36,233 nt of DNA, taken from positions 1 to 36,233 of IMG/VR virus record IMGVR_UViG_3300011977_000034. The stretch is one strand, 5' to 3'. Shown in pieces: positions 3,333 through 27,760 of this stretch (the stretch's first letter is position 1; the number at the start of each line of letters is the position of its first letter). Made by a program: the position numbers and the translations under genes. The notes under the pieces are model-generated. The model did no database searches. It saw only the letters and a program-made list of their open reading frames with translations, and had not been told where the DNA came from. This DNA comes from a virus.

Positions 3333-3361
3333 ATTATACTACGTTTTGTGTACGATGTCAA
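3333..3361 (-). promoter_or_regulatory. Consensus early (lytic) promoter
   Basis: The minus strand has TTGACA (3356-3361), a 17-nt spacer, then TATAAT (3333-3338). The -35 is embedded in TTGACATCGTACAC, the same 14-mer found at the repressor promoter. Confidence 0.75.
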
Positions 3362-3380: not shown

Positions 3381-3410
3381 TATACAAAAAGCAAACGATT
3401 TTTTTGTATA
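3381..3410. repeat. 10-bp perfect inverted repeat TATACAAAAA / TTTTTGTATA between the divergent switch promoters
   Basis: Read directly: arms at 3381-3390 and 3401-3410 with a 10-nt spacer. Confidence 0.8.
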
Positions 3411-3445
3411 GTTTGCATAATGAGAACGAACGAACTAAAATCCCC

Positions 3446-3474
3446 TTGACATCGTACACGTTTCGTGATATAAT
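3446..3474 (+). promoter_or_regulatory. Consensus promoter of the repressor/integrase (lysogeny) transcript
   Basis: TTGACA (3446-3451), a 17-nt spacer, then TATAAT (3469-3474). The RBS GGAAAGGAAG and ATG 3497 follow. Confidence 0.75.
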
Positions 3475-3496
3475 GAAGCGGAAAGGAAGTGATGAA

Positions 3497-4009
3497 ATGG
3501 CATGGTTTAATGTCCTAAAAGCATTAAGAGAAGCATCGGGTGAATCGATGTCGGAAGCTGCGGATGCATTAAACATAGCAAAAAGTACATATGCAAGCTA
3601 TGAATACGGAAAAAGAGAACCAAATATTGAAATGCTTACAAAAATTGCAAATCATTATAATGTAACCGTTGACTATCTGCTCGGGCGAGAGCCTGCTCCG
3701 GATGACCCGATTGAAATGCTCTCCAGAGAATTAAACCTGAATCTGTACGAAAAAGCAATTGTGACAGCGTATCTTGCAATGGACACAAAAAGCAGGACGG
3801 ATTTGGTAAAAATGGTGCAAACTGTAGCAGATGCCGTTCAGAGCGGGGCGGAATCCAAGTATACATACACTATACAAGTTGCAGCCCGTGGCGATGCAGC
3901 GAAGAGCCGGCAGGAGCAGGGGGAAGATGTGACCGTATCCACAACCCTTGGGGCGGTGGAAGACCAGATGGAAGAAACGGCGAAAGCGAAAGAAGAAGCA
4001 TCGTCCTGA
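3497..4009 (+). CDS. CI-like repressor, XRE-family HTH, no S24 peptidase domain (170 aa)
   Basis: MAWFNVLKALREASGESMSEAADALNIAKSTYASYEYGKREPNIEMLTKIANHYNVTVDYLLGRE is a classic HTH_XRE motif. The C-terminal half has no Ser/Lys autocleavage motifs that I can recognise. Confidence 0.85.
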   Translation: MAWFNVLKALREASGESMSEAADALNIAKSTYASYEYGKREPNIEMLTKIANHYNVTVDYLLGREPAPDDPIEMLSRELNLNLYEKAIVTAYLAMDTKSRTDLVKMVQTVADAVQSGAESKYTYTIQVAARGDAAKSRQEQGEDVTVSTTLGAVEDQMEETAKAKEEASS

Positions 4010-4193: not shown

Positions 4194-5690
4194 ATGAAAA
4201 GAGCAGTGTTTTATGGTCGTTATTCCAGCGACCGACAGACAGAGCAGAGCATTGAGGGGCAGCGGCGTGTCTGCGAAGAGTTTGCAAAGGCAGAGCAAAT
4301 TCAAATCGTGGGCGAATACATCGACCGGGCAACATCCGGCACTTCTACAGAGCATCGAGAGCAGTTTCAGAAAATGCTAAAGGATAGCAAGAACGGCGGC
4401 TGGGATTATGTGCTGGTTTACAAACTCGACCGATTCGCCCGTAGCCGCTATGATAGTGCCATCAGCAAGCAGCAGCTGAAAAAGAATGGCGTAAAGGTAT
4501 TATCTGCGACTGAACGCATTACAGACAGTCCAGAGGGCATTTTGATTGAAGGCTTGCTGGAATCCATGGACGAATATTTCAGCCGGGAACTTTCCCGAAA
4601 ATGCAAGCGTGGCATTCGGGAAAGCATTATAAAAGGGCATAATTTCGGCGGTCGGGTCCTGTATGGCTATGACCGGAAAGACAAGCGGTTTGTCATCAAC
4701 GAAGAGCAGGCGGTGAATGTACGGCGGATTTTCAAAAGCTATCTTTCCGGCTGCACGATTCAATCCATTGCAGACCAGCTGAATGCAGATGGATACCGGA
4801 CGAACTACGGGAACGAATTTAAACGCTATACCGTTTCCGACATCCTGCACAATGACAAATATACAGGGATACACTACATAGACGGCATCGAAGAGCCAGA
4901 AACCTGTCCGGCAATCATCTCACAGACGACATTTGACCGGGCAAAGGAAAAGTTGAATCAGTCTGCCCACCGTTCCAGAGAACACGCCACAGGGCATACT
5001 TACGCACTGTCAGGGCTGTTGCAGTGTGGTGTCTGCGGAAGATATGTCTGCGGTTCGTCTGTAGAACGAAAGTATTTCTATTATGCTTGCCGGAGCAGGG
5101 AGCATGCAGAAAACAGCGTACATATTCATGCAGACAAACTGGAGCAGGTGGTGATAGATGCCTTGCAAACCTTTTTCACAGAAGAGCAGGTTTCCACGCT
5201 TGCAGAACGACTGTACCAAATCTATACCACGGATATGGATGGAAAACCAGACCGCAGCAAACGGCTGAATGAGATTGAAAAACAGATACAAGGAACGGTG
5301 AACGCTCTGATTGCGTGTCCAAGTTCCAAGGCATTGCAAGAAAAATTGACTCAGCTGGAAGAACAAAAAGCAGAAATTGAAAAGATGCCGATTTTGCAGC
5401 CGCAGCTGAAAAAAGAGCATTTTGAAAATTATTTTCGTTGGCTGGCTCTTCGGCTGGAGCATATCGAAGACCGTCAGACGTTTTTCCATACCGTGATTCA
5501 CAAAGTGCTTGTTTATCCAGAAAAAGCAGTTATCATCTTGAATATGACCGATGAAATGGCAGACCCACCAAAGAGAGAACAGGTTGAAGCGTTTATGTCT
5601 AATGTAGGGGAAGTGTCCCCTTGTCCTACACTATACAAACTTTATGTTACGCCGTTTGCTATTTTCATTCGTGCAGCACTCATAAAATAA
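4194..5690 (+). CDS. int: Large serine recombinase (phage integrase)
   Basis: The N-terminus has a resolvase catalytic domain (AVFYGRYSSDRQ..EGQ). A recombinase domain and a zinc ribbon (CGVCGRYVCG...YYYACRS) follow, then a coiled-coil C-terminus. AAGGAG is the RBS. Confidence 0.95.
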   Translation: MKRAVFYGRYSSDRQTEQSIEGQRRVCEEFAKAEQIQIVGEYIDRATSGTSTEHREQFQKMLKDSKNGGWDYVLVYKLDRFARSRYDSAISKQQLKKNGVKVLSATERITDSPEGILIEGLLESMDEYFSRELSRKCKRGIRESIIKGHNFGGRVLYGYDRKDKRFVINEEQAVNVRRIFKSYLSGCTIQSIADQLNADGYRTNYGNEFKRYTVSDILHNDKYTGIHYIDGIEEPETCPAIISQTTFDRAKEKLNQSAHRSREHATGHTYALSGLLQCGVCGRYVCGSSVERKYFYYACRSREHAENSVHIHADKLEQVVIDALQTFFTEEQVSTLAERLYQIYTTDMDGKPDRSKRLNEIEKQIQGTVNALIACPSSKALQEKLTQLEEQKAEIEKMPILQPQLKKEHFENYFRWLALRLEHIEDRQTFFHTVIHKVLVYPEKAVIILNMTDEMADPPKREQVEAFMSNVGEVSPCPTLYKLYVTPFAIFIRAALIK

Positions 5691-20932: not shown

Positions 20933-21802
20933 TTACGCTCCAGTCGCAATCGTGCCAACAATGACACCATCCAGCCGTTCTGCAAACAGTACAGACCCCG
21001 TTAAAATCGTGGTCTCATAGTTTGCACGCGTATAATCTGCGGTGTGGGTAATGCCAACCAGTCCCGTTGCATCTGTTGTAAAGCTGAATGCCTTGTTGAT
21101 TTCCCCACCGGAGATTGCCGGATATGCCAGATTCAGGTTATCGGCAACGGTTGCATAGAATGTTCCTGCCGGAACACTGGAGTTAGACATGACTTTGACA
21201 TCCAAAAATGTCTGGAAATACGTCATGCCAAAAGCAGTCTGCGTGGTAATGTTGGTCTGCTCCCCAAGATATTTTGAAATATCCTGCGGATTTGCAATCA
21301 CAATCACGCCATCGGTTGCATCATTCTCAAAGAGTACCTGCAACTTTCCCCAAGCATCTGCTACGGCGGCTTGAAAGCCAGTGCCGGTTGCTGTACCAGT
21401 ACCAGTTGCCAAAAACGTCACCAAAGAGGAGCGAATGTTGCTCTGAATCTGTTTCAACAACTCATTGTCTGCCTGCGAAACCGCAAGGTCAAAGCCGCTG
21501 CGTTGGATGGCTTCCAGCGTTACTGCCTTCCGGTACTTCTTGTAAGCCAGTTCATAGGTATTTGCCAGCTCTACTTCCACCTTGGACAGCGGAATCAAGT
21601 CGCCTTCTGCAACGTCTCCATTCGCCATGGTTACCTTGTTTTTGTATACTTTGATGATAGAACCGTTCGCCATTGCCGTACGTCTGGTAATGCCGAGAAG
21701 TTCCTGCAATTTCTGGATGCCATCGACAAAGCGATTGGTAAAATCAATCGACTGTGCCTTGGCAAAATCGGTGGTCAAATTGGTATTTGCTTGTACTGCC
21801 AT
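20933..21802 (-). CDS. Major capsid protein (289 aa)
   Basis: It follows the scaffold gene and its size fits. The N-terminus is ..FTNRFVDGIQKLQELLGITR, as in scaffold-dependent capsid proteins of Firmicutes phages. Confidence 0.9.
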   Translation of the reverse strand: MAVQANTNLTTDFAKAQSIDFTNRFVDGIQKLQELLGITRRTAMANGSIIKVYKNKVTMANGDVAEGDLIPLSKVEVELANTYELAYKKYRKAVTLEAIQRSGFDLAVSQADNELLKQIQSNIRSSLVTFLATGTGTATGTGFQAAVADAWGKLQVLFENDATDGVIVIANPQDISKYLGEQTNITTQTAFGMTYFQTFLDVKVMSNSSVPAGTFYATVADNLNLAYPAISGGEINKAFSFTTDATGLVGITHTADYTRANYETTILTGSVLFAERLDGVIVGTIATGA

Positions 21803-21817
21803 AATAAATTAACTCCT

Positions 21818-22360
21818 TTACTCAAATAAATTCATGTTGTCCCGAATCGCCTGTAACCGTTTTCCTTCATCAGGAATGGCGAAAATCTGTTCTTTCGTCA
21901 TGCGTCCTGACGCTCCGGTCTTGGGCGGTTCGCCCTTTAAGCGTTCCTTGACGGCGTTTTCTACCGCTTCTGTAAACAGCGTTGCAAAAGCTTCCACCTG
22001 TGTTTTGGTGGTCTTTGTGTCCTCTGCAACCACGGCAGCTACCAGAGAATCCGGCAAATGAATGCCTTTTTCGGATAGCATTTCCCGTGCGGTTTTCTGC
22101 ATCTGTGCCGCTTCCACCTGCTTTTGCAGGGCTTGAAGCTGCTGCTTGTAGGAATCCCGCTCCGTTTCTGCTCGCTGCTGGTCGGTCATTTCTGCCAGTT
22201 TCTTTGCTTCTGACTGCCGCTGTTCAAAGCCTTGGAATGCTTCCGCAATCATCTGCGAAACGGCTTCTGCGGTCAGGGCTTCCGCCGGTTGTGTTGGTTC
22301 GTTCTGTGGCTCTGCTGCTTCCGGTTCGGTTGCCGTTGTGCCTTTGGTTTCTTCGCTCAT
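21818..22360 (-). CDS. Scaffolding protein (DUF4355-like) (180 aa)
   Basis: The N-terminus is acidic and low in complexity. An E/Q/K-rich helical core follows. The position is before the capsid gene. Confidence 0.85.
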   Translation of the reverse strand: MSEETKGTTATEPEAAEPQNEPTQPAEALTAEAVSQMIAEAFQGFEQRQSEAKKLAEMTDQQRAETERDSYKQQLQALQKQVEAAQMQKTAREMLSEKGIHLPDSLVAAVVAEDTKTTKTQVEAFATLFTEAVENAVKERLKGEPPKTGASGRMTKEQIFAIPDEGKRLQAIRDNMNLFE

Positions 22361-22641
22361 TCTGTATTACCTCCATTCAAGTATTTGTCAAACGCTGTAT
22401 GCAGCGTTTCCAGTGTGTGCAGGGCTTCGGTTCGTGTTCGTTCCAAACCGTCATCGCCCAGCAGAATCAGGCAGGGAAGCCGTTTGACATGATGTTGTCT
22501 TGCAAGAGCGTTCCCATCGTATCCGTCATTGCAGCGGAATTGGTACAAGGGAATGCCGGTTTCTATGGAAAACTGCTCCGCCACTGGCTGCATTTGCTTG
22601 CATGGTGGGCAGTAGTCCGCATGAAAAAAGAGAAGCTGCAT
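22357..22641 (-). CDS. Thioredoxin-fold protein with a CPPC active-site motif (94 aa)
   Basis: AAAGGAG precedes ATG 22641. The segment LLFFHADYCPPCKQMQPVAEQF...VKRLPCLILLGDDG shows the CxxC motif and a cis-Pro loop. An ATGA overlap couples it to the scaffold gene. Confidence 0.75.
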   Translation of the reverse strand: MQLLFFHADYCPPCKQMQPVAEQFSIETGIPLYQFRCNDGYDGNALARQHHVKRLPCLILLGDDGLERTRTEALHTLETLHTAFDKYLNGGNTE

Positions 22642-22670
22642 AAGATTGCTCCTTTCGTATTTTGGGTATG

Positions 22671-22696
22671 AAAAAAGCACCTGATTTGCTCAGATG
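22671..22696 (-). terminator. Sense-oriented intrinsic terminator-like element upstream of the thioredoxin-like gene
   Basis: The minus-strand RNA is CAUCUGA-GCAAA-UCAGGUG-CUUUUUU. The stem is 7 bp and includes one G-U pair. Confidence 0.55.
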
Positions 22697-22789: not shown

Positions 22790-23053
22790 TTAAAGTATGA
22801 TATTTTCGATTGCTGCACGGGCTTCCAGAGCGGTGATATAGTCTGCCATCGCTCTAATCTGCAAATCATAAATGCTTCTCGGGCAAGTTGGATAAAAGTT
22901 TAGCTTTCCCTTGTCCCATCTGGCAAGCATGCATTTCAGCTTTCGATACCGGATAGCCACCTGTATATACTCCGCCTTAAAGCGTTCCTTATAGTCTGTG
23001 CTGCCCATCATACTTACTGTATCTTTCAATTCTGCTGGTTTGCTTGTTTCCAT
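22790..23053 (-). CDS. Hypothetical 87-aa helical protein (resembles the small phage family annotated crAss001_48-related; from memory only)
   Basis: GAAAGGAG precedes ATG 23053. The sequence is YKERFKAEYIQVAIRYRKLKCMLARWDKGKLNFYPTCPRSIYDLQIRAMADYITALEARA. Confidence 0.6.
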   Translation of the reverse strand: METSKPAELKDTVSMMGSTDYKERFKAEYIQVAIRYRKLKCMLARWDKGKLNFYPTCPRSIYDLQIRAMADYITALEARAAIENIIL

Positions 23054-23074
23054 ATTTTTCTCCTTTCGGGCATG

Positions 23075-23097
23075 AAAAAAGCACCTCATTGAGATGC
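23075..23097 (-). terminator. Sense-oriented intrinsic terminator-like element upstream of the 87-aa gene
   Basis: The minus-strand RNA is GCAUCUC-AAU-GAGGUGC-UUUUUU. Confidence 0.55.
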
Positions 23098-23127
23098 TTT
23101 TCATATTTTTGGTTTTAGAGGGCAAGA

Positions 23128-23373
23128 TTAACATGGTTGAATCTCAACATCTGCATATATTTCAGACAAAGATTTTCCGTCTATAAATGGAAATGTAAAA
23201 ACTTCATTTTCCTCTGTTACATCATATTCATCTGTTCCATATCGAAGATGGTATATATTTTTTTTAAGTTCATCACTATAACAGCAGTCAATATATCCAT
23301 CTTTTTCGCCACATGTAAAAGCCACATAGAACGCATTTTGCAATTCTTTTTGAATTTCCATCACATTTTTCAT
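23128..23373 (-). CDS. Hypothetical 81-aa acidic protein, coupled (ATGA) to the MuF gene; candidate immunity protein
   Basis: This is a tracked ORF in very AT-rich sequence. Its ATG overlaps the MuF stop codon. Confidence 0.65.
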   Translation of the reverse strand: MKNVMEIQKELQNAFYVAFTCGEKDGYIDCCYSDELKKNIYHLRYGTDEYDVTEENEVFTFPFIDGKSLSEIYADVEIQPC

Positions 23374-24803
23374 AGTATATCACCATTTTCTTTTCGTTCT
23401 GTTTCAGTAAGTTCTCTTGCACTTCCTCGATGCAATTCGCCATGCTCACCATAAATATAATCATGTGCATGTTCTCCAAAAAAGCCTCTATCTTCTTCTA
23501 TTGCATTTCCATGTCCATTATTACTTATCTGCAAAAACTGATTTCCGTTTTCATCATAATAATTTCGATTAACGCCGCCTTTTGCATTCACAATTTGCGT
23601 AATAGAATTTGGTTTATCCTGCAAGGTCGTTTTCTCAACAATTTTGACTTCTTCTCCAGAAGCGGTATAAACGACTTCATCAAGAATCTTTCCATTTTCA
23701 TCAAAATGAAGAGCAGAAAGCACTCGTTCGATAACTTCTTTTGCTTTTTTGGAACGTTCTGCACGTTCGTCAGCACTGTATTTCGATTTGTATTTTTTCT
23801 GTTTTGTTTTTATTATACCATCTTTCCGCGTATCTGTCAATAAAATTGCATCTGATTTTCCACTTCCAGAATCGGCATTCAACCGTCCATTTATCGTCGC
23901 CAAATCCTCCACCACCGGCATAACGGTACATCTGCACCAAGGGTGCATCGGTGGAAAATTCAAGCCGGCATTCCGTTTGCTGATTTCAAATGTCTGTCCA
24001 CTCAACGCACGGCAAGTTTCACAGGTGCGGTGGTCTTCTACACAGAGATATTCATAATGCGTATAAGCTGCATTCCGTTCAAATGGTCGAATTTTCGCTT
24101 CATTGGATAAGTACGTATCTTCTGTAAAAACCAGCCGTTCTGCTTGCTTCTGCGATGTATTTTCAAACTTCTGCTGCAAGATTCTTGACATGGTCCTATA
24201 ATCTTCACCACGAATCAGACCGTTTGCAATCTCGTTTTGTAAAGTCTGTGCTAAGGCTTCTCGGTTTGCCCAAATCCGTTCAGAAAAATCTTTGCCATTG
24301 CACCAAGGATTCCCAATCACAACTTGCAACATCTCGCTGTCAATCCGGTAAAAATTCGTCCCGAATCCCAACTGCTCCGCTGCATAGTTTGCATATTTCA
24401 ACGCCTGTTTCTCAAAGTGTTCTCGAAATTTCGCTTGCTCAATCGCTCCGATTTTTAATTGCTGCAATACGATAGAAGTTTGCAATCCTTCCAAGCGGTT
24501 CAGTTTGTAAATGCTCTCCCGAACAGGGAGCAGGTCGGCAAACTCTGGATATTGCTTTGCAAATTCATCCATGTTTTGCAGCAGCAGTTGCTTGTCTGCA
24601 TCCGGTAATTCTAGCAGCAATGTGCGGAATGCAATCACATTTTCTTCGCCATATTTGGCATAGTACGCTGCGATTTCTTTGTCCAGTGCTGCATATTCCT
24701 GTTCATAGTATTTCGACAACTCCGAGAAGAGCTGCTTTTCATCTTTGCTTAAAGATACATCCAATTCTTGCAGCCGCTTGCTCCAGTAGGTGTCACTCTG
24801 CAT
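23370..24803 (-). CDS. Head morphogenesis protein, SPP1 gp7 / MuF family, with a 177-aa C-terminal extension (477 aa)
   Basis: The MuF core ends in CETCRALSGQTF...LNFPPMHPWCRCTVMP. The extension (residues 301-477, 23370-23903) ends in NRNYYDENGNQFLQISNNGHGNAIEEDRGFFGEHAHDYIYGEHGELHRGSARELTETE. Confidence 0.9.
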   Translation of the reverse strand: MQSDTYWSKRLQELDVSLSKDEKQLFSELSKYYEQEYAALDKEIAAYYAKYGEENVIAFRTLLLELPDADKQLLLQNMDEFAKQYPEFADLLPVRESIYKLNRLEGLQTSIVLQQLKIGAIEQAKFREHFEKQALKYANYAAEQLGFGTNFYRIDSEMLQVVIGNPWCNGKDFSERIWANREALAQTLQNEIANGLIRGEDYRTMSRILQQKFENTSQKQAERLVFTEDTYLSNEAKIRPFERNAAYTHYEYLCVEDHRTCETCRALSGQTFEISKRNAGLNFPPMHPWCRCTVMPVVEDLATINGRLNADSGSGKSDAILLTDTRKDGIIKTKQKKYKSKYSADERAERSKKAKEVIERVLSALHFDENGKILDEVVYTASGEEVKIVEKTTLQDKPNSITQIVNAKGGVNRNYYDENGNQFLQISNNGHGNAIEEDRGFFGEHAHDYIYGEHGELHRGSARELTETERKENGDIL

Positions 24804-26124
24804 CGCCTGTCACCCGCTCTGCCTGCAACGTATCCACCGCCTCACCGCCGTTCTCCAAGTCGATTTTCTCCAGTTCTTTCTTTGGGTCATCGACAGCAGA
24901 AATGACAGAAAGCTGCGTCTCTTTGGAAGTCACACCTGCCATTTGAGCGGCGGTCTGTACCTCTTCGAGCAGGTTCTTTGGTGCATTTTGCGTGAATTGA
25001 TAGGTGATACCCAGATACGCATCCGCTGCCATTTTCGTTGCCGGATGGCTTGCAATCAGTTTCCAGCGTTGATTCATGCCGGAAGAAAATTTCCGTGCCT
25101 TGTTTGCTGCCTGATTTTTCATCGGCTGCAACTTGTACGCAAGGGCTGTCCCGGAGCTGCTGCCGAAGCTTTCATCCGAAATATTTGCAACCATAGATTG
25201 CATAAAAATTTGGTCTTCCAAGCGGTCTAACAAGTTCTCCTGCGTTGCATCGGCAGAAGGCTTCTGCAAAAATTCCACTTGAATCCCGTTCAGAATTTCC
25301 GCATCGGTGGGCGGAACATGAATCACACGGTCGTTTCGGATGGTGTGCAGCTCCTGTTCGTTCAGTTTCAAGCCTTTCAACAGCAAATACGCATCTGCAA
25401 AATAATCCACATCATTTGCTTTTTCTGAGATGGCTTTTTCATAGGCAGTGATTGCCGATTCCACTTGTTCAAATGCTCCTTGCCGTTCCTCGTTTTCAAG
25501 GTATTCAATGAGCGGAACGCCTGCGAAATAGTGCGGAATCGCATCCAGATAATGCAAGCCGCCTTTATCTGAAAACGGAATCTCCATGCTGGAAGTGTAG
25601 ACGCTGCCTACGGTTTCTCCATCGGATTTCTGATAATATCGCACACCATAAAGCGGCTTCCGTGCAATCGTATCATCATAAATGATAAAGCATTCTAACG
25701 GCGATGCATAAGTAATGCAAATCTGTGCAGTTTCATCCGTGTAAAGCAACTCAAAGCCACTTCCGTAAATGCTGCAATATTTGGATAATTCTGAATTATT
25801 GTCGTCTTGGTCATTGTAGTGCTGAATCTGTTCCAATTCCTCAGAAACAATTTCATCCGGGTGCATCGTCTTGACTGGAATGCCGATGAAATAGCCGTTC
25901 AGCGTGTCTACAATGTACTTCGCAAAGTTGCAAATAATCCGGTTGTCCGGCTTCCATGTTGGTTTGGGTGGCTCTAATTGAATTGGATGCCGCCCCTCGT
26001 ACAAATCTTTCAGATACCGAAACCGCTGACAGTCGATTTTGTGTTGATTCATCCAATAGGAGAGCCGCTCGGTTGTCAGCTCTGTATCTGCGGAAATTGT
26101 ATAGTAGTCTTGCCTTCGGAACAT
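24793..26124 (-). CDS. Portal protein (SPP1 gp6-like) (443 aa)
   Basis: The position lies between terL and MuF. The N-terminus is ..NQHKIDCQRFRYLKDLYEGRHPI...NRIICNFAKYIVDTLNGYF. AAGGAGG is the RBS. Confidence 0.9.
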   Translation of the reverse strand: MFRRQDYYTISADTELTTERLSYWMNQHKIDCQRFRYLKDLYEGRHPIQLEPPKPTWKPDNRIICNFAKYIVDTLNGYFIGIPVKTMHPDEIVSEELEQIQHYNDQDDNNSELSKYCSIYGSGFELLYTDETAQICITYASPLECFIIYDDTIARKPLYGVRYYQKSDGETVGSVYTSSMEIPFSDKGGLHYLDAIPHYFAGVPLIEYLENEERQGAFEQVESAITAYEKAISEKANDVDYFADAYLLLKGLKLNEQELHTIRNDRVIHVPPTDAEILNGIQVEFLQKPSADATQENLLDRLEDQIFMQSMVANISDESFGSSSGTALAYKLQPMKNQAANKARKFSSGMNQRWKLIASHPATKMAADAYLGITYQFTQNAPKNLLEEVQTAAQMAGVTSKETQLSVISAVDDPKKELEKIDLENGGEAVDTLQAERVTGDAE

Positions 26125-26136
26125 GTTGTCACCTCC

Positions 26137-27342
26137 TTATATCCCGCCAATCACTCTGGAAATGCTTGCTTCTTCGCCCATAATTGTGTTGACAAAATAT
26201 CGCACGTCATCCATAGCATGGTCATTTTCCTTAATTGGTCTGTCTTCGCTGCACGATTCATCCCAGCGATACAAGCCAAACTCTCGAATGCAGTTCTTGC
26301 AATCGGGAGAGAATCGCAATTTTTCCGCCTGCAATGCAGAAGAAACTCGCCGGATGCCATCTACAACCGCATTCTTGCCTTTCCGAACGGTAAAATCTGC
26401 ATTCCGCAGTTCTGCAATGAAGCTCGCTGCGGATGGGTCAACAATGACACATTCAATCTTGTGGCTGCCTGCCAATTGTTGAATCCGTTGCAGATATTGG
26501 GCATTGGTGAGCTGTTTGCGTGTCTCTCTGCCACTGTAGTAGTATTCTGCCGCTCGGTAGGCGGTTGTTCCATCATAACACCAAAGCCCAGCAGAGAAGG
26601 CGTTTAGCGTGCCATAGTCCACGGAAATATACCATTCGCCTTGCGGATTGTCCCGTTGTTCTATGTGTTTTTCTCGGTCAAACTGCGGATAAATCAGCCC
26701 CTCTGCAATTGCCCATTCTCCCAAAATAAACCGGTTGTAAAATACGCCGGTATACTCTTTTTTGACGGATTCTACATACTGTGGGTCAAGCGTTGTATTG
26801 TCTTCTAATAAAAAACGCATGGTCAACATATCCAGTTCAGCCATGCGGTCAATGTATTCTCTTTTCAACCAGTGTTGGGGGCTGTCGGGATTGGTCGTTG
26901 CAATCAGCTTTGCACCAGGCACACGCAAACGGGATAGCAGCATAACAAAGAAATCCTTTGGGAACAGCGTCAATTCATCGCAGTACGCACCTTGCAGGGT
27001 CAGCCCTCGAATTTTGCCTTCGCTGCGTGCATCGTTTGCACCTTCCAGCAGAATCCGCCTGCCGAACAGATAGGCTTCTTTGGCAGAGGTTGAAAAAGAA
27101 AAATTACTTTGCCCAAACATGGCTTCCAGCGGAATCAAACAGTTTCGTTTCAACGTGGTCAACGACTTTCCGCACATCAGATACAGCTGATTTTGCGGCA
27201 TGGTAGCCAGCCAGAACCCCCAGCATACCAATGAAATCCACGTCTTCCCAGAAGAAACAGACCCTTCCAGCAAGTTAATCCGCTGCAACTTCTTTGTTCG
27301 CCACAGTTCCATCAATTGCCGCTGCTTCTTCGTGTAAATCAT
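26137..27342 (-). CDS. terL: Terminase large subunit (PBSX/Terminase_3-6 type)
   Basis: The N-terminus is IYTKKQRQLMELW..RINLLEGSVSSGKT, with a Walker A motif. A nuclease-type C-terminus has HAMDDVRY. An alternative start lies at 27372. Confidence 0.9.
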   Translation of the reverse strand: MIYTKKQRQLMELWRTKKLQRINLLEGSVSSGKTWISLVCWGFWLATMPQNQLYLMCGKSLTTLKRNCLIPLEAMFGQSNFSFSTSAKEAYLFGRRILLEGANDARSEGKIRGLTLQGAYCDELTLFPKDFFVMLLSRLRVPGAKLIATTNPDSPQHWLKREYIDRMAELDMLTMRFLLEDNTTLDPQYVESVKKEYTGVFYNRFILGEWAIAEGLIYPQFDREKHIEQRDNPQGEWYISVDYGTLNAFSAGLWCYDGTTAYRAAEYYYSGRETRKQLTNAQYLQRIQQLAGSHKIECVIVDPSAASFIAELRNADFTVRKGKNAVVDGIRRVSSALQAEKLRFSPDCKNCIREFGLYRWDESCSEDRPIKENDHAMDDVRYFVNTIMGEEASISRVIGGI

Positions 27343-27760
27343 CTTCCACCCCCTGTTCCTGCATTCCTGCAATCAGCTGTTCCGTCATGCCGTTGCTCGG
27401 CTTGTCTTGCTTCGCCGCCTGCCGCTTTTTCAAGGTCAGTTCTTCCCGTTGTACGGTCTTTCCAAGTACGTCCATGACCTTATCAAATGCTTTGGTATCT
27501 CGGTCTTCCGTGACAGCCTGAAACATGGCAACCAGCAGCAGCATTTCATTATCTGCGTCCTCTTCCGGAATGCCAAGTGCTTTCAACAATTCTGTTTGAC
27601 TGGCAGTCGGATGCAGGGAAAGCAGCAGCTTCATTTTGGCTTTCATGTCTTTTTTTCTGCGGCGTGCTTCTCCGGACTTTTTGCCTCCTTTTCTTGCAAT
27701 TTCTCTTTGTTCGTTCTCTGTTCGTTCGTCCATCGGAATCAGGTTTTCTTCATTTGCCAA
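27275..27760 (-). CDS. terS: Terminase small subunit
   Basis: The motif REIARKGGKKSGEARRRKK is typical of small terminases. The start is TTG, behind GGAGGGAGG. An alternative ATG lies at 27733. Confidence 0.8.
   Translation of the reverse strand: MANEENLIPMDERTENEQREIARKGGKKSGEARRRKKDMKAKMKLLLSLHPTASQTELLKALGIPEEDADNEMLLLVAMFQAVTEDRDTKAFDKVMDVLGKTVQREELTLKKRQAAKQDKPSNGMTEQLIAGMQEQGVEDDLHEEAAAIDGTVANKEVAAD

Follow-up and report, generated by a model that had tools for sequence, protein, structure and literature searches.

The subject of this study is the muf gene of a phage, together with the small gene that overlaps its 3′ end, as found in the IMG/VR virus record IMGVR_UViG_3300011977_000034. 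The record was analysed over 36,233 nucleotides (nt), and this whole stretch of DNA is referred to here as the window. The phage is temperate and comes from a gut bacterium; in the window we found genes for a large serine recombinase (4194-5690), an HTH_3 repressor (3404-4009) and an antirepressor (1434-2345). Relatives are present in genomes of Oscillospiraceae, Ruminococcus, Lachnospiraceae, Streptococcus and others. The head genes are encoded on the minus strand in the order terminase, portal, MuF, an open reading frame (ORF) of 81 amino acids (aa), PF21825, thioredoxin-like, DUF4355 scaffold and capsid (Table 1). The original prediction, which was made by reading the DNA without database searches, had proposed a MuF head protein extended at its C-terminus and a coupled small ORF, and this layout is indeed present beside the portal gene of a temperate phage.

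Within the MuF protein, Pfam Phage_Mu_F (PF04233) matches residues 186-295 (E 2e-19) and TIGR01641 phageSPP1_gp7 matches residues 189-298. In addition, the protein was assigned to PHROG 115, minor head protein (E 3.5e-82), in an alignment that reaches residue 421. As the core ends at about residue 300 of 477, about 177 residues lie beyond it, in agreement with the extension that had been predicted. The basic linker described in this extension was found as KTKQKKYKSKYSADERAERSKKAKE, and the same linker is also present in the orphan copy of the related locus L007 and in locus L011 (see below). The terminal module was likewise recovered, as NRNYYDENGNQF...GEHAHDY...RELTETERKENGDIL, ending in ERKENGDIL; we call it the His module here. 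In a profile search of 1.84 billion representatives we obtained 461 module clusters at 50% identity, and among the matches listed the module is the C-terminal end of the protein. Near-invariant positions in the module alignments are P398, G409, R413, Y416, G420, Q425, H431 and G440, followed by G443-E-H445-x-H447, R463, L465, E469-R470 and D475.

Table 1. Features of the muf locus in the window, in the order in which they are read on the minus strand
Feature	Position	Strand	Evidence or remark
Terminase gene	26137-27372	minus	head-gene block
SPP1-type portal gene	24793-26124	minus	PF05133, E 8.5e-121; overlaps muf start
muf gene	23370-24803	minus	477 aa plus stop; ORF list; follows directly on the portal gene
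Conserved MuF core, residues 1-300	23904-24803	minus	96-100% identity to siblings with other C-termini
Promoter consensus TTGACA-N17-TATAAT, TGn extended -10	23812-23840	minus	12/12 sigma-70/sigmaA consensus; promoter scan
Basic linker, residues 332-356	23736-23810	minus	starts the exchangeable cassette
Exchangeable cassette (C-terminal module and small ORF)	23102-23805	minus	blastn breakpoints against siblings
Conserved C-terminal module, residues 398-477	23373-23612	minus	family alignments; family without an earlier name
81-aa acidic partner gene (candidate immunity gene)	23128-23373	minus	ATG overlaps the muf stop codon (ATGA)
Terminator-like hairpin and U6	23066-23105	minus	about 30 nt past the 81-aa stop; dG -14.2 kcal/mol, z -4.08
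PF21825 'Sequestin'-family gene, 87 aa	22790-23053	minus	E 7e-17; next after the cassette
Thioredoxin-like gene	22357-22641	minus	PF00085, E 2e-7, CPPC motif; between accessory and scaffold genes
DUF4355 scaffold gene	21818-22360	minus	head-gene block
Capsid gene	20933-21802	minus	head-gene block

The acidic ORF with the ATGA overlap was also found where it had been described. The DNA at the overlap reads ...gatatactATGAaaaatg, and the protein contains 17 D/E vs 7 K/R residues. Its family consists of stand-alone proteins of 74-81 aa, and a Shine-Dalgarno (SD)-like GGTGAT or AAGGAG is present upstream of the small-ORF ATG. The module and the small ORF are paired. In an IMG/VR set of 93 loci, made up of 80 loci retrieved by module peptide patterns alone, the loci known earlier and the window, a member of the small-ORF family lies directly downstream of the module in all 93, in about 88 of them with the 4-nt overlap. 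In an independent set of GTDB genomes the pairing was found in 77 of the 78 loci, and 65 had the ATGA overlap. A narrower search with an alignment of the small protein returned only 8 loci, all of them known before.

The pairing is kept on MuF1, MuF2 and DUF7211 carriers as well as outside head contexts. In phages of S. pneumoniae/mitis, the module matches the C-termini of head-morphogenesis proteins on two backbones (IPP38 and Javan316). Behind each of these proteins there is a 75-aa ORF that overlaps with it and is a homologue of the 81-aa ORF. Pneumococcal prophages such as Spn1 and IPP38 have the same cassette. Two further loci (L003, 6001-6692, and L006, 6001-6695) encode a stand-alone pair, in which a protein of about 150-155 aa, with the DUF7211 motif HHGIKGQKWGVRNGPPYP at its N-terminus and the module behind it, precedes an overlapping 76-aa partner. 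These two pairs are situated among dUTPase, single-stranded DNA-binding protein and helicase genes, that is, genes of replication and nucleotide metabolism and not head genes.

Two side observations concern the partner. The NCBI protein P0022 (146 aa) represents a natural fusion by frameshift: the module continues at its end into about 27 residues from the beginning of the small ORF, which illustrates how closely the frames of the two genes abut. In prophage records of S. pneumoniae/mitis (L001 and L002, 3243-3470; P0198-P0260) the partner is annotated as '16S rRNA processing protein RimM' or 'isoleucyl-tRNA synthetase'. We found no support for the name RimM in Pfam or NCBIfam, and both names, for which Pfam and NCBIfam hold no evidence, look like propagated mis-annotations.

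Exchange of the C-terminal cassette

Loci were also retrieved with the MuF core of the window (residues 1-300) alone. The tails of the 78 loci obtained fell into 19 clusters. Cores that are 96-100% identical to that of the window carry at least five unrelated tails. These are the His module, a tail of 111 aa with 'KHYDKH', one that is DUF6883-like (26.7 bits vs a cut-off of 27), the tail of L107 and that of L108, which has an HEKCH motif. On cores with 45-62% identity we found Ntox50 (E 1e-20), the ADP-ribosyltransferase ADPrib_exo_Tox (E 9e-10) and the glutamine deamidase Gln_amidase, papain-fold toxin 1 (E 2e-12), in addition to several other tails without an assignment. The C-termini thus swap among relatives, and a module that stays with its core throughout was not what we observed. 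The tail clusters L141, L142, L152, L154, L163 and L164 have no Pfam match and, like the MuF C-termini of L007 and L010 (see below), are further candidate cargo families. By eye, the tail of cluster 0 looks RelA/SpoT-like and that of L107 colicin-D-like; neither has a Pfam match and neither assignment is claimed.

Alignment with sibling phages by blastn placed the left breakpoint at 23805-23808, directly behind the codon for K332 in DGIIK; one allele has it at 23879. The right breakpoint was found at 23101, directly 3′ of the small ORF, or at 22688, before the thioredoxin gene. From these breakpoints, the exchanged unit is 23102-23805 and comprises the C-terminal module together with the small ORF. 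This unit also differs in base composition. The region 23128-23900 had been judged AT-rich by eye; the computed GC content is 0.343 over 23128-23903 and 0.337 over the cassette, compared to the window (0.467), the MuF core (0.446), the portal gene (0.467) and the capsid gene (0.480). The cassette is the lowest-GC stretch of 704 nt in the whole 36 kb, with 0.23% of such stretches as low. Alternative cassettes have a GC content of 0.33-0.35 vs 0.44-0.49 in their flanks. The breakpoints and the equally low GC of the other cassettes bear out the proposal that the module and the small gene were acquired as one cassette.

Displaced copies of the cassette were found in several relatives. Locus L011, which has a second backbone, encodes MuF with the His module and the 81-aa ORF, and its core is common with L010 and L012 up to GIIK. 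Past this point, L010 and L012 have another tail with a 79-aa ORF, followed by a 5′-truncated His module and an intact 81-aa gene. L007, a relative with 62% core identity, carries another tail with an 83-aa ORF and, about 900 nt further on, an orphan cassette with 86.9% DNA identity to window positions 23078-23855. The called start of this orphan is a TTG that overlaps the -35 element of a TTGACA-17-TATAAT motif; no SD is found in front of it, and the motif itself is kept. Different MuF tails go with different small ORFs: those behind the MuF C-termini of L007 (2679-4281, 83 aa) and L010 (3119-4717, 79 aa) are unrelated to the 81-aa family.

The strong conservation of the module, with many invariant residues, and its presence on two different backbones of the MuF superfamily could also point to a structural or assembly part of the head, for example one that binds portal, DNA or capsid, with the 81-aa protein as its folding or assembly chaperone. 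The PHROG 115 'minor head protein' alignment, which runs into the extension up to residue 421, and the lack of toxin homology speak for the same explanation. It is difficult to reconcile, however, with near-identical phages that have unrelated domains instead, or that possess the module solely as an orphan, which bears the promoter and has no proper start. Moreover, the truncated module keeps an intact partner gene, the stand-alone proteins of about 150 aa sit among replication genes and again have a partner, and the cassette has a predicted promoter and terminator of its own as well as a foreign base composition. A structural role is in our estimate the least probable of the explanations discussed here, and our confidence in the cassette and pairing logic is high.

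A promoter consensus at the junction

The left breakpoint is located 4-7 nt downstream of a perfect promoter consensus (Table 1). This consensus is embedded in the codons of LLTDTRKDGII, where the conserved part of muf has its 3′ end. The -35 element corresponds to the codons TTG ACA (L T) and the -10 element lies within GGT ATA ATA (G I I). We found three TTGACW-N17-TATAAT sites in the window, where 0.02 are expected. The other two, which are likewise perfect TTGACA-N17-TATAAT matches, form a divergent pair at 3333-3361 (minus) and 3446-3474 (plus) beside the HTH_3 repressor gene, which is probably the lysis/lysogeny switch.

In the structural genes of the phage ATA accounts for 3 of the 132 Ile codons, and the first Ile of the junction is always ATA; T is in all cases the last base of the preceding codon (GGT, AGT or GAT). 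The third base of the second junction Ile, which is unconstrained, varies, and other GII motifs of the same genes use ATC or ATT. In the clade of the window the -35 element is kept as L-T (TTGACA/T). In the MuF2/DUF7211 lineages it is read as L-K (TTGAAA) within the junction peptide TLKNAAGxDII, and in the pneumococcal phages it is in another frame, F-D-K (TTGATA). A motif with at least 10 of the 12 consensus positions was found at a fixed distance upstream of the module in 89 of 93 and 70 of 78 loci, compared to 5 of 90 and 6 of 70 in equal-sized control stretches of the same genes. All alleles of the MuF clade of the window have the motif, including the Ntox50 allele. It is the DNA of the junction that is conserved and not the peptide.

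At its other end the cassette is closed by the terminator-like hairpin, which is located at the right-hand breakpoint 23101. A simple terminator scan missed this structure; direct folding revealed a hairpin followed by U6 after the 81-aa ORF, where a terminator had been predicted. Since the promoter consensus is conserved in the DNA, the cassette looks like a moron and could express the small protein in lysogens. Methionine is five-fold rarer in the module family (0.54% vs 2.66%) and is absent from residues 333-477 in the window. The hairpin, the SD-like sites and the depletion of methionine would fit a lysogen transcript that gives the small protein and not the module.

A promoter of constitutive appearance upstream of both coding regions, a terminator after them, a 4-nt gene overlap as in type II toxin-antitoxin pairs and the existence of stand-alone two-gene versions are all features that could be expected of a toxin-antitoxin-like module for addiction or abortive infection, which would be expressed from the embedded promoter and an internal start and would stabilise the prophage or defend the lysogen. 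Such a module would have to be translated from within the cassette. However, no in-frame Met occurs in residues 333-477 past the predicted transcription start, methionine is depleted five-fold across the family, and the alignment contains no conserved internal start. In addition, the start called for the L007 orphan is a TTG that no SD precedes, and no match was found in PADLOC. We consider this explanation very improbable.

Fold, carriers and related systems

The original prediction had refrained from assigning the module to a named toxin fold, and this caution was justified, as Pfam (at E ≤ 1 and at E ≤ 10), NCBIfam, PADLOC, PDB and Foldseek were all negative. The AlphaFold2 model of the module (mean predicted local distance difference test score, pLDDT, 86.3) is mostly beta with two short predicted helices; the best Foldseek match in PDB had an E-value of 0.2, and the folds were unrelated. 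Against BFVD, Foldseek returned only family members with uninformative names and a Mimivirus 'hemagglutinin'. The model of the 81-aa protein (mean pLDDT 91.4) has a predicted alpha-beta4-alpha-alpha-beta order; its best Foldseek match in PDB had an E-value of 0.3, again to unrelated folds, and the protein has no match in Pfam, NCBIfam, PADLOC or the PDB sequences. When the full MuF protein and five diverse modules were searched by hmmscan (E ≤ 10), no Ntox or Tox model matched, and no Ntox/Tox family was found among 142 family members in a Pfam scan (E ≤ 1e-3). One module member gave RHS_repeat with E 0.045, below the cut-off in the Pfam scan. The GG..RNYYD..G.Q pattern of the module resembles a single YD hairpin, and Rhs shells appear in the Foldseek list only at E 0.3-0.8.

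Several specific folds were considered for the module and rejected. For an HNH/His-Me finger, Foldseek gave no PDB match below E 0.2 and no HNH protein in the top 50, no HNH-type family matched in Pfam, and in the AlphaFold2 model the first hairpin strand has the conserved HxH where it starts and not where it ends. The cupin motif G-x5-HxH-x3-4-E-x6-G does not fit in its spacing, its Glu lacks conservation, and the module is too small a domain. All-beta is the description given of Ntox24, with conserved Y, H and H, and is found on MuF carriers (Zhang et al. 2012, PMC3482391). The module is similar in being a small, mostly beta domain with conserved Y and His on MuF carriers. As no Ntox24 model matched in Pfam for five diverse members, even at E ≤ 10, we do not file it as a member. 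The H...GEHxH pattern suggests a metal or active site. That the module is a metal-dependent hydrolase would be a guess, and the same applies to a nucleic-acid-directed enzyme, which would be compatible with the acidity of the partner and with the basic linker; our confidence in an enzymatic nature of the module is low.

Among 141 representative carriers, Pfam identified Phage_min_cap2 (MuF2) in 42, Phage_Mu_F (MuF1) in 24, DUF7211 in 8, VG15 in 3 and Peptidase_S78_2 in 1. DUF7211 was found together with DUF5662 as well in the larger set, and Peptidase_S78_2 is carried by a separate match; DUF7211 may mark another carrier family with polymorphic ends. The module was further seen on contigs binned to Segatella copri (L189) and Collinsella aerofaciens (L230), and these bins outside the Bacillota are probably binning artefacts.

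MuF polymorphic toxins of temperate phages have been described before (Zhang et al. 2012, PMC3482391; Jamet et al. 2017, PMC5576092), and Apk2 and Bxa are the members that have been characterised (PMC12226406, PMC11699363). According to a paper of 2024, these two were the only MuF activities characterised by then, and the biological role of MuF toxins was still unknown. The locus in the window shares with this group a MuF domain beside the portal in a temperate phage of the Bacillota, a variable C-terminus, a small downstream ORF, and recognised toxin domains as alleles of the same slot in related phages. It differs in that neither its C-terminal domain nor the partner has a counterpart in Pfam, NCBIfam or PDB, and in that the domain was not seen on any non-phage carrier of polymorphic toxins, while most MuF toxin domains are common to other polymorphic-toxin families (Jamet et al., PMC5576092). 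A known toxin domain was found in only 34% of the MuF C-terminal extensions (Jamet et al. 2017, PMC5576092), and many extensions are thus without one. In the text of Jamet et al. (2017) the words promoter, orphan and recombination occur 0 times each. Nor did the other MuF toxin literature that we searched describe the junction promoter, the exact breakpoints or the orphan cassettes. With the breakpoints placed and orphan cassettes located in phage genomes, a picture of cassette exchange at the base-pair level is obtained.

Three other systems resemble the locus in part. In CdiA-CT/CdiI and Rhs-CT/RhsI, in which CT is the C-terminal toxin region, a conserved junction (VENN in CdiA, PxxxxDPxGL in Rhs) precedes the variable C-terminus. 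Here, LLTD...DGIIK is in the position of this junction, the C-terminus and the candidate immunity gene move together, and displaced or 5′-truncated orphans are found downstream. Orphan pairs of the CdiA/Rhs type are represented by the L007 orphan and by the truncated module with its intact small ORF in L010 and L012. In contrast to CdiA and Rhs, the carrier is a phage capsid protein and not a secretion substrate, and the junction is conserved as a promoter consensus in the DNA, with the -35 element read in different frames or residues.

Nuclease colicin operons have a constitutive immunity promoter inside the colicin gene, and immunity protein is made without induction of the toxin operon. The predicted promoter of the muf locus is likewise within the candidate toxin coding sequence. 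It differs in being upstream of the whole domain, about 430 nt before the start of the candidate immunity gene, and at the recombination junction. Phage morons are units of promoter, gene and terminator with deviant base composition that are located between late genes. At the sequence level, the cassette shares with them the consensus promoter, the terminator-like hairpin, a GC content of 0.337 vs 0.467 and the place between head genes, and the adjoining Sequestin gene is flanked by the 34-nt direct repeat of which the hairpin is part. In contrast to morons, its 5′ part continues the reading frame of an essential head gene, so that one stretch of DNA serves as the end of a late structural gene and, at the same time, as a potentially autonomous unit of transcription.

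Interpretation of the locus

Taking these data together, we interpret the locus as a MuF polymorphic effector (toxin) locus, with a probability of about 0.65, and we hold with moderate confidence that the module and the 81-aa ORF may be a toxin/immunity pair. By analogy with SPP1 gp7, the MuF core of 300 residues would place the protein in the virion, from which it would enter the next host with the DNA. Residues 333-477 would then be an exchangeable cargo domain, and the coupled 81-aa acidic protein would bind and neutralise it as the cognate immunity partner. Cargo and partner would form one mobile, AT-rich cassette with the sigmaA consensus as its 5′ boundary and the terminator-like hairpin as its 3′ boundary, and these conserved boundaries would give the homology for cassette swapping and for the capture of orphan cassettes. 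In a lysogen, the predicted promoter, if active, would let the partner gene be transcribed at a time when the late operon is silent. During the lytic cycle, translational coupling to MuF would supply the partner one-to-one.

A number of observations weigh against this interpretation. The module has no similarity to any known toxin, and a recognised toxin domain, one of the marks of MuF polymorphic toxins, was not found in it. It has no match in Pfam (E ≤ 10), NCBIfam or PADLOC, nor in the PDB sequences by phmmer and profile hmmsearch. In the 141 representatives it was found on phage proteins only, mostly head proteins, and Pfam identified LXG, Rhs, CdiA or WXG in none of these carriers. As the module was seen on phage proteins only, with no classical carrier of secreted toxins, the designation 'toxin' is inferred from the position of the module in the locus. 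Furthermore, the gene context of the stand-alone pairs in L003 and L006 is not obviously explained by delivery in the capsid. As to the junction, the predicted promoter is a consensus match, the transcript of which would begin with about 430 nt of leader ahead of the small ORF, and it is missing at that position in lineages with 45-52% core identity. Among the more distant MuF-toxin lineages that are without it is the cluster with the tail that looks RelA/SpoT-like by eye.

The gene that follows the cassette belongs to the Sequestin family (Table 1), which was shown in 2025 to consist of anti-Thoeris sponges for 3′cADPR (bioRxiv 10.1101/2025.07.12.664507). The 114-aa ORF listed for it from 23134, which overlaps the stop of the 81-aa ORF, is most likely an over-extension, with the real start at the ATG at 23053 after GGAG. 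The gene is flanked by a 34-nt direct repeat (22653-22686 and 23057-23090), the copies of which are 82% identical and 404 nt apart. Each copy contains a hairpin tail, a T-run and an SD, and the two coincide with the alternative right-hand breakpoints 23101 and 22688. Some of the sibling phages are without the Sequestin gene. The thioredoxin-like gene behind it is listed with a GTG start at 22680, which is probably too far upstream as well; the same gene is found in L007, together with two Cys_rich_CPCC ORFs.

A neighbour from an anti-Thoeris family, and a module that occurs on phage proteins only, mostly of the head, with no bacterial secretion carrier, would also suit a cargo that is injected as a non-lethal effector of host takeover or anti-defence. 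The small protein of a prophage would then neutralise the effector of sibling phages as a form of superinfection exclusion, which is in line with the expression of the partner in lysogens that promoter and terminator imply, and the tail polymorphism would reflect competition of phage against phage. The literature leaves room for such a role, as the biological role of MuF toxins is given as unknown and resistance to cellular defences is one of the options proposed for them (Jamet et al., PMC5576092). On the other hand, the alleles of the same slot include Ntox50, ADP-ribosyltransferase and glutamine deamidase, which are regarded as bona fide toxins, a harmless effector would need no stoichiometric, coupled antidote in the producing cell, and the module has no similarity to known anti-defence proteins. 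We regard a non-lethal effector as rather unlikely, and the polymorphic toxin locus remains our preferred interpretation.

The data also allow a more far-reaching model, which we put forward as a tentative whole and would not yet favour. In this model, the conserved junction motif of this MuF clade would be a sigmaA promoter within coding DNA and no peptide signal, and every cassette, orphans included, would be an autonomous moron from which the lysogen constitutively makes the small neutralising protein. Resident prophages would thereby disarm the capsid-delivered effector of incoming siblings, that is, exert superinfection exclusion by immunity, and this exclusion, rather than bacterial warfare, would drive the turnover of cassettes. 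As for the His module, it would represent a new fold of metal-dependent enzymes, found on phage proteins only, mostly those of the head.

MuF toxins are abundant in human-gut prophages. As a MuF polymorphic toxin locus, the one described here adds a new cargo family and a new partner family to those known, and both are part of a large and well-delimited family with 461 clusters and confident structure models for the two proteins. The predicted junction promoter represents an additional regulatory and recombinational feature, which is possibly general. We propose that, in lysogens with a silent late operon, the immunity gene may be transcribed from a promoter concealed within the linker codons of MuF. 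If this promoter is active, the question becomes when and for whom MuF immunity acts: in the producing cell, in kin lysogens or in the exclusion of rival phages.

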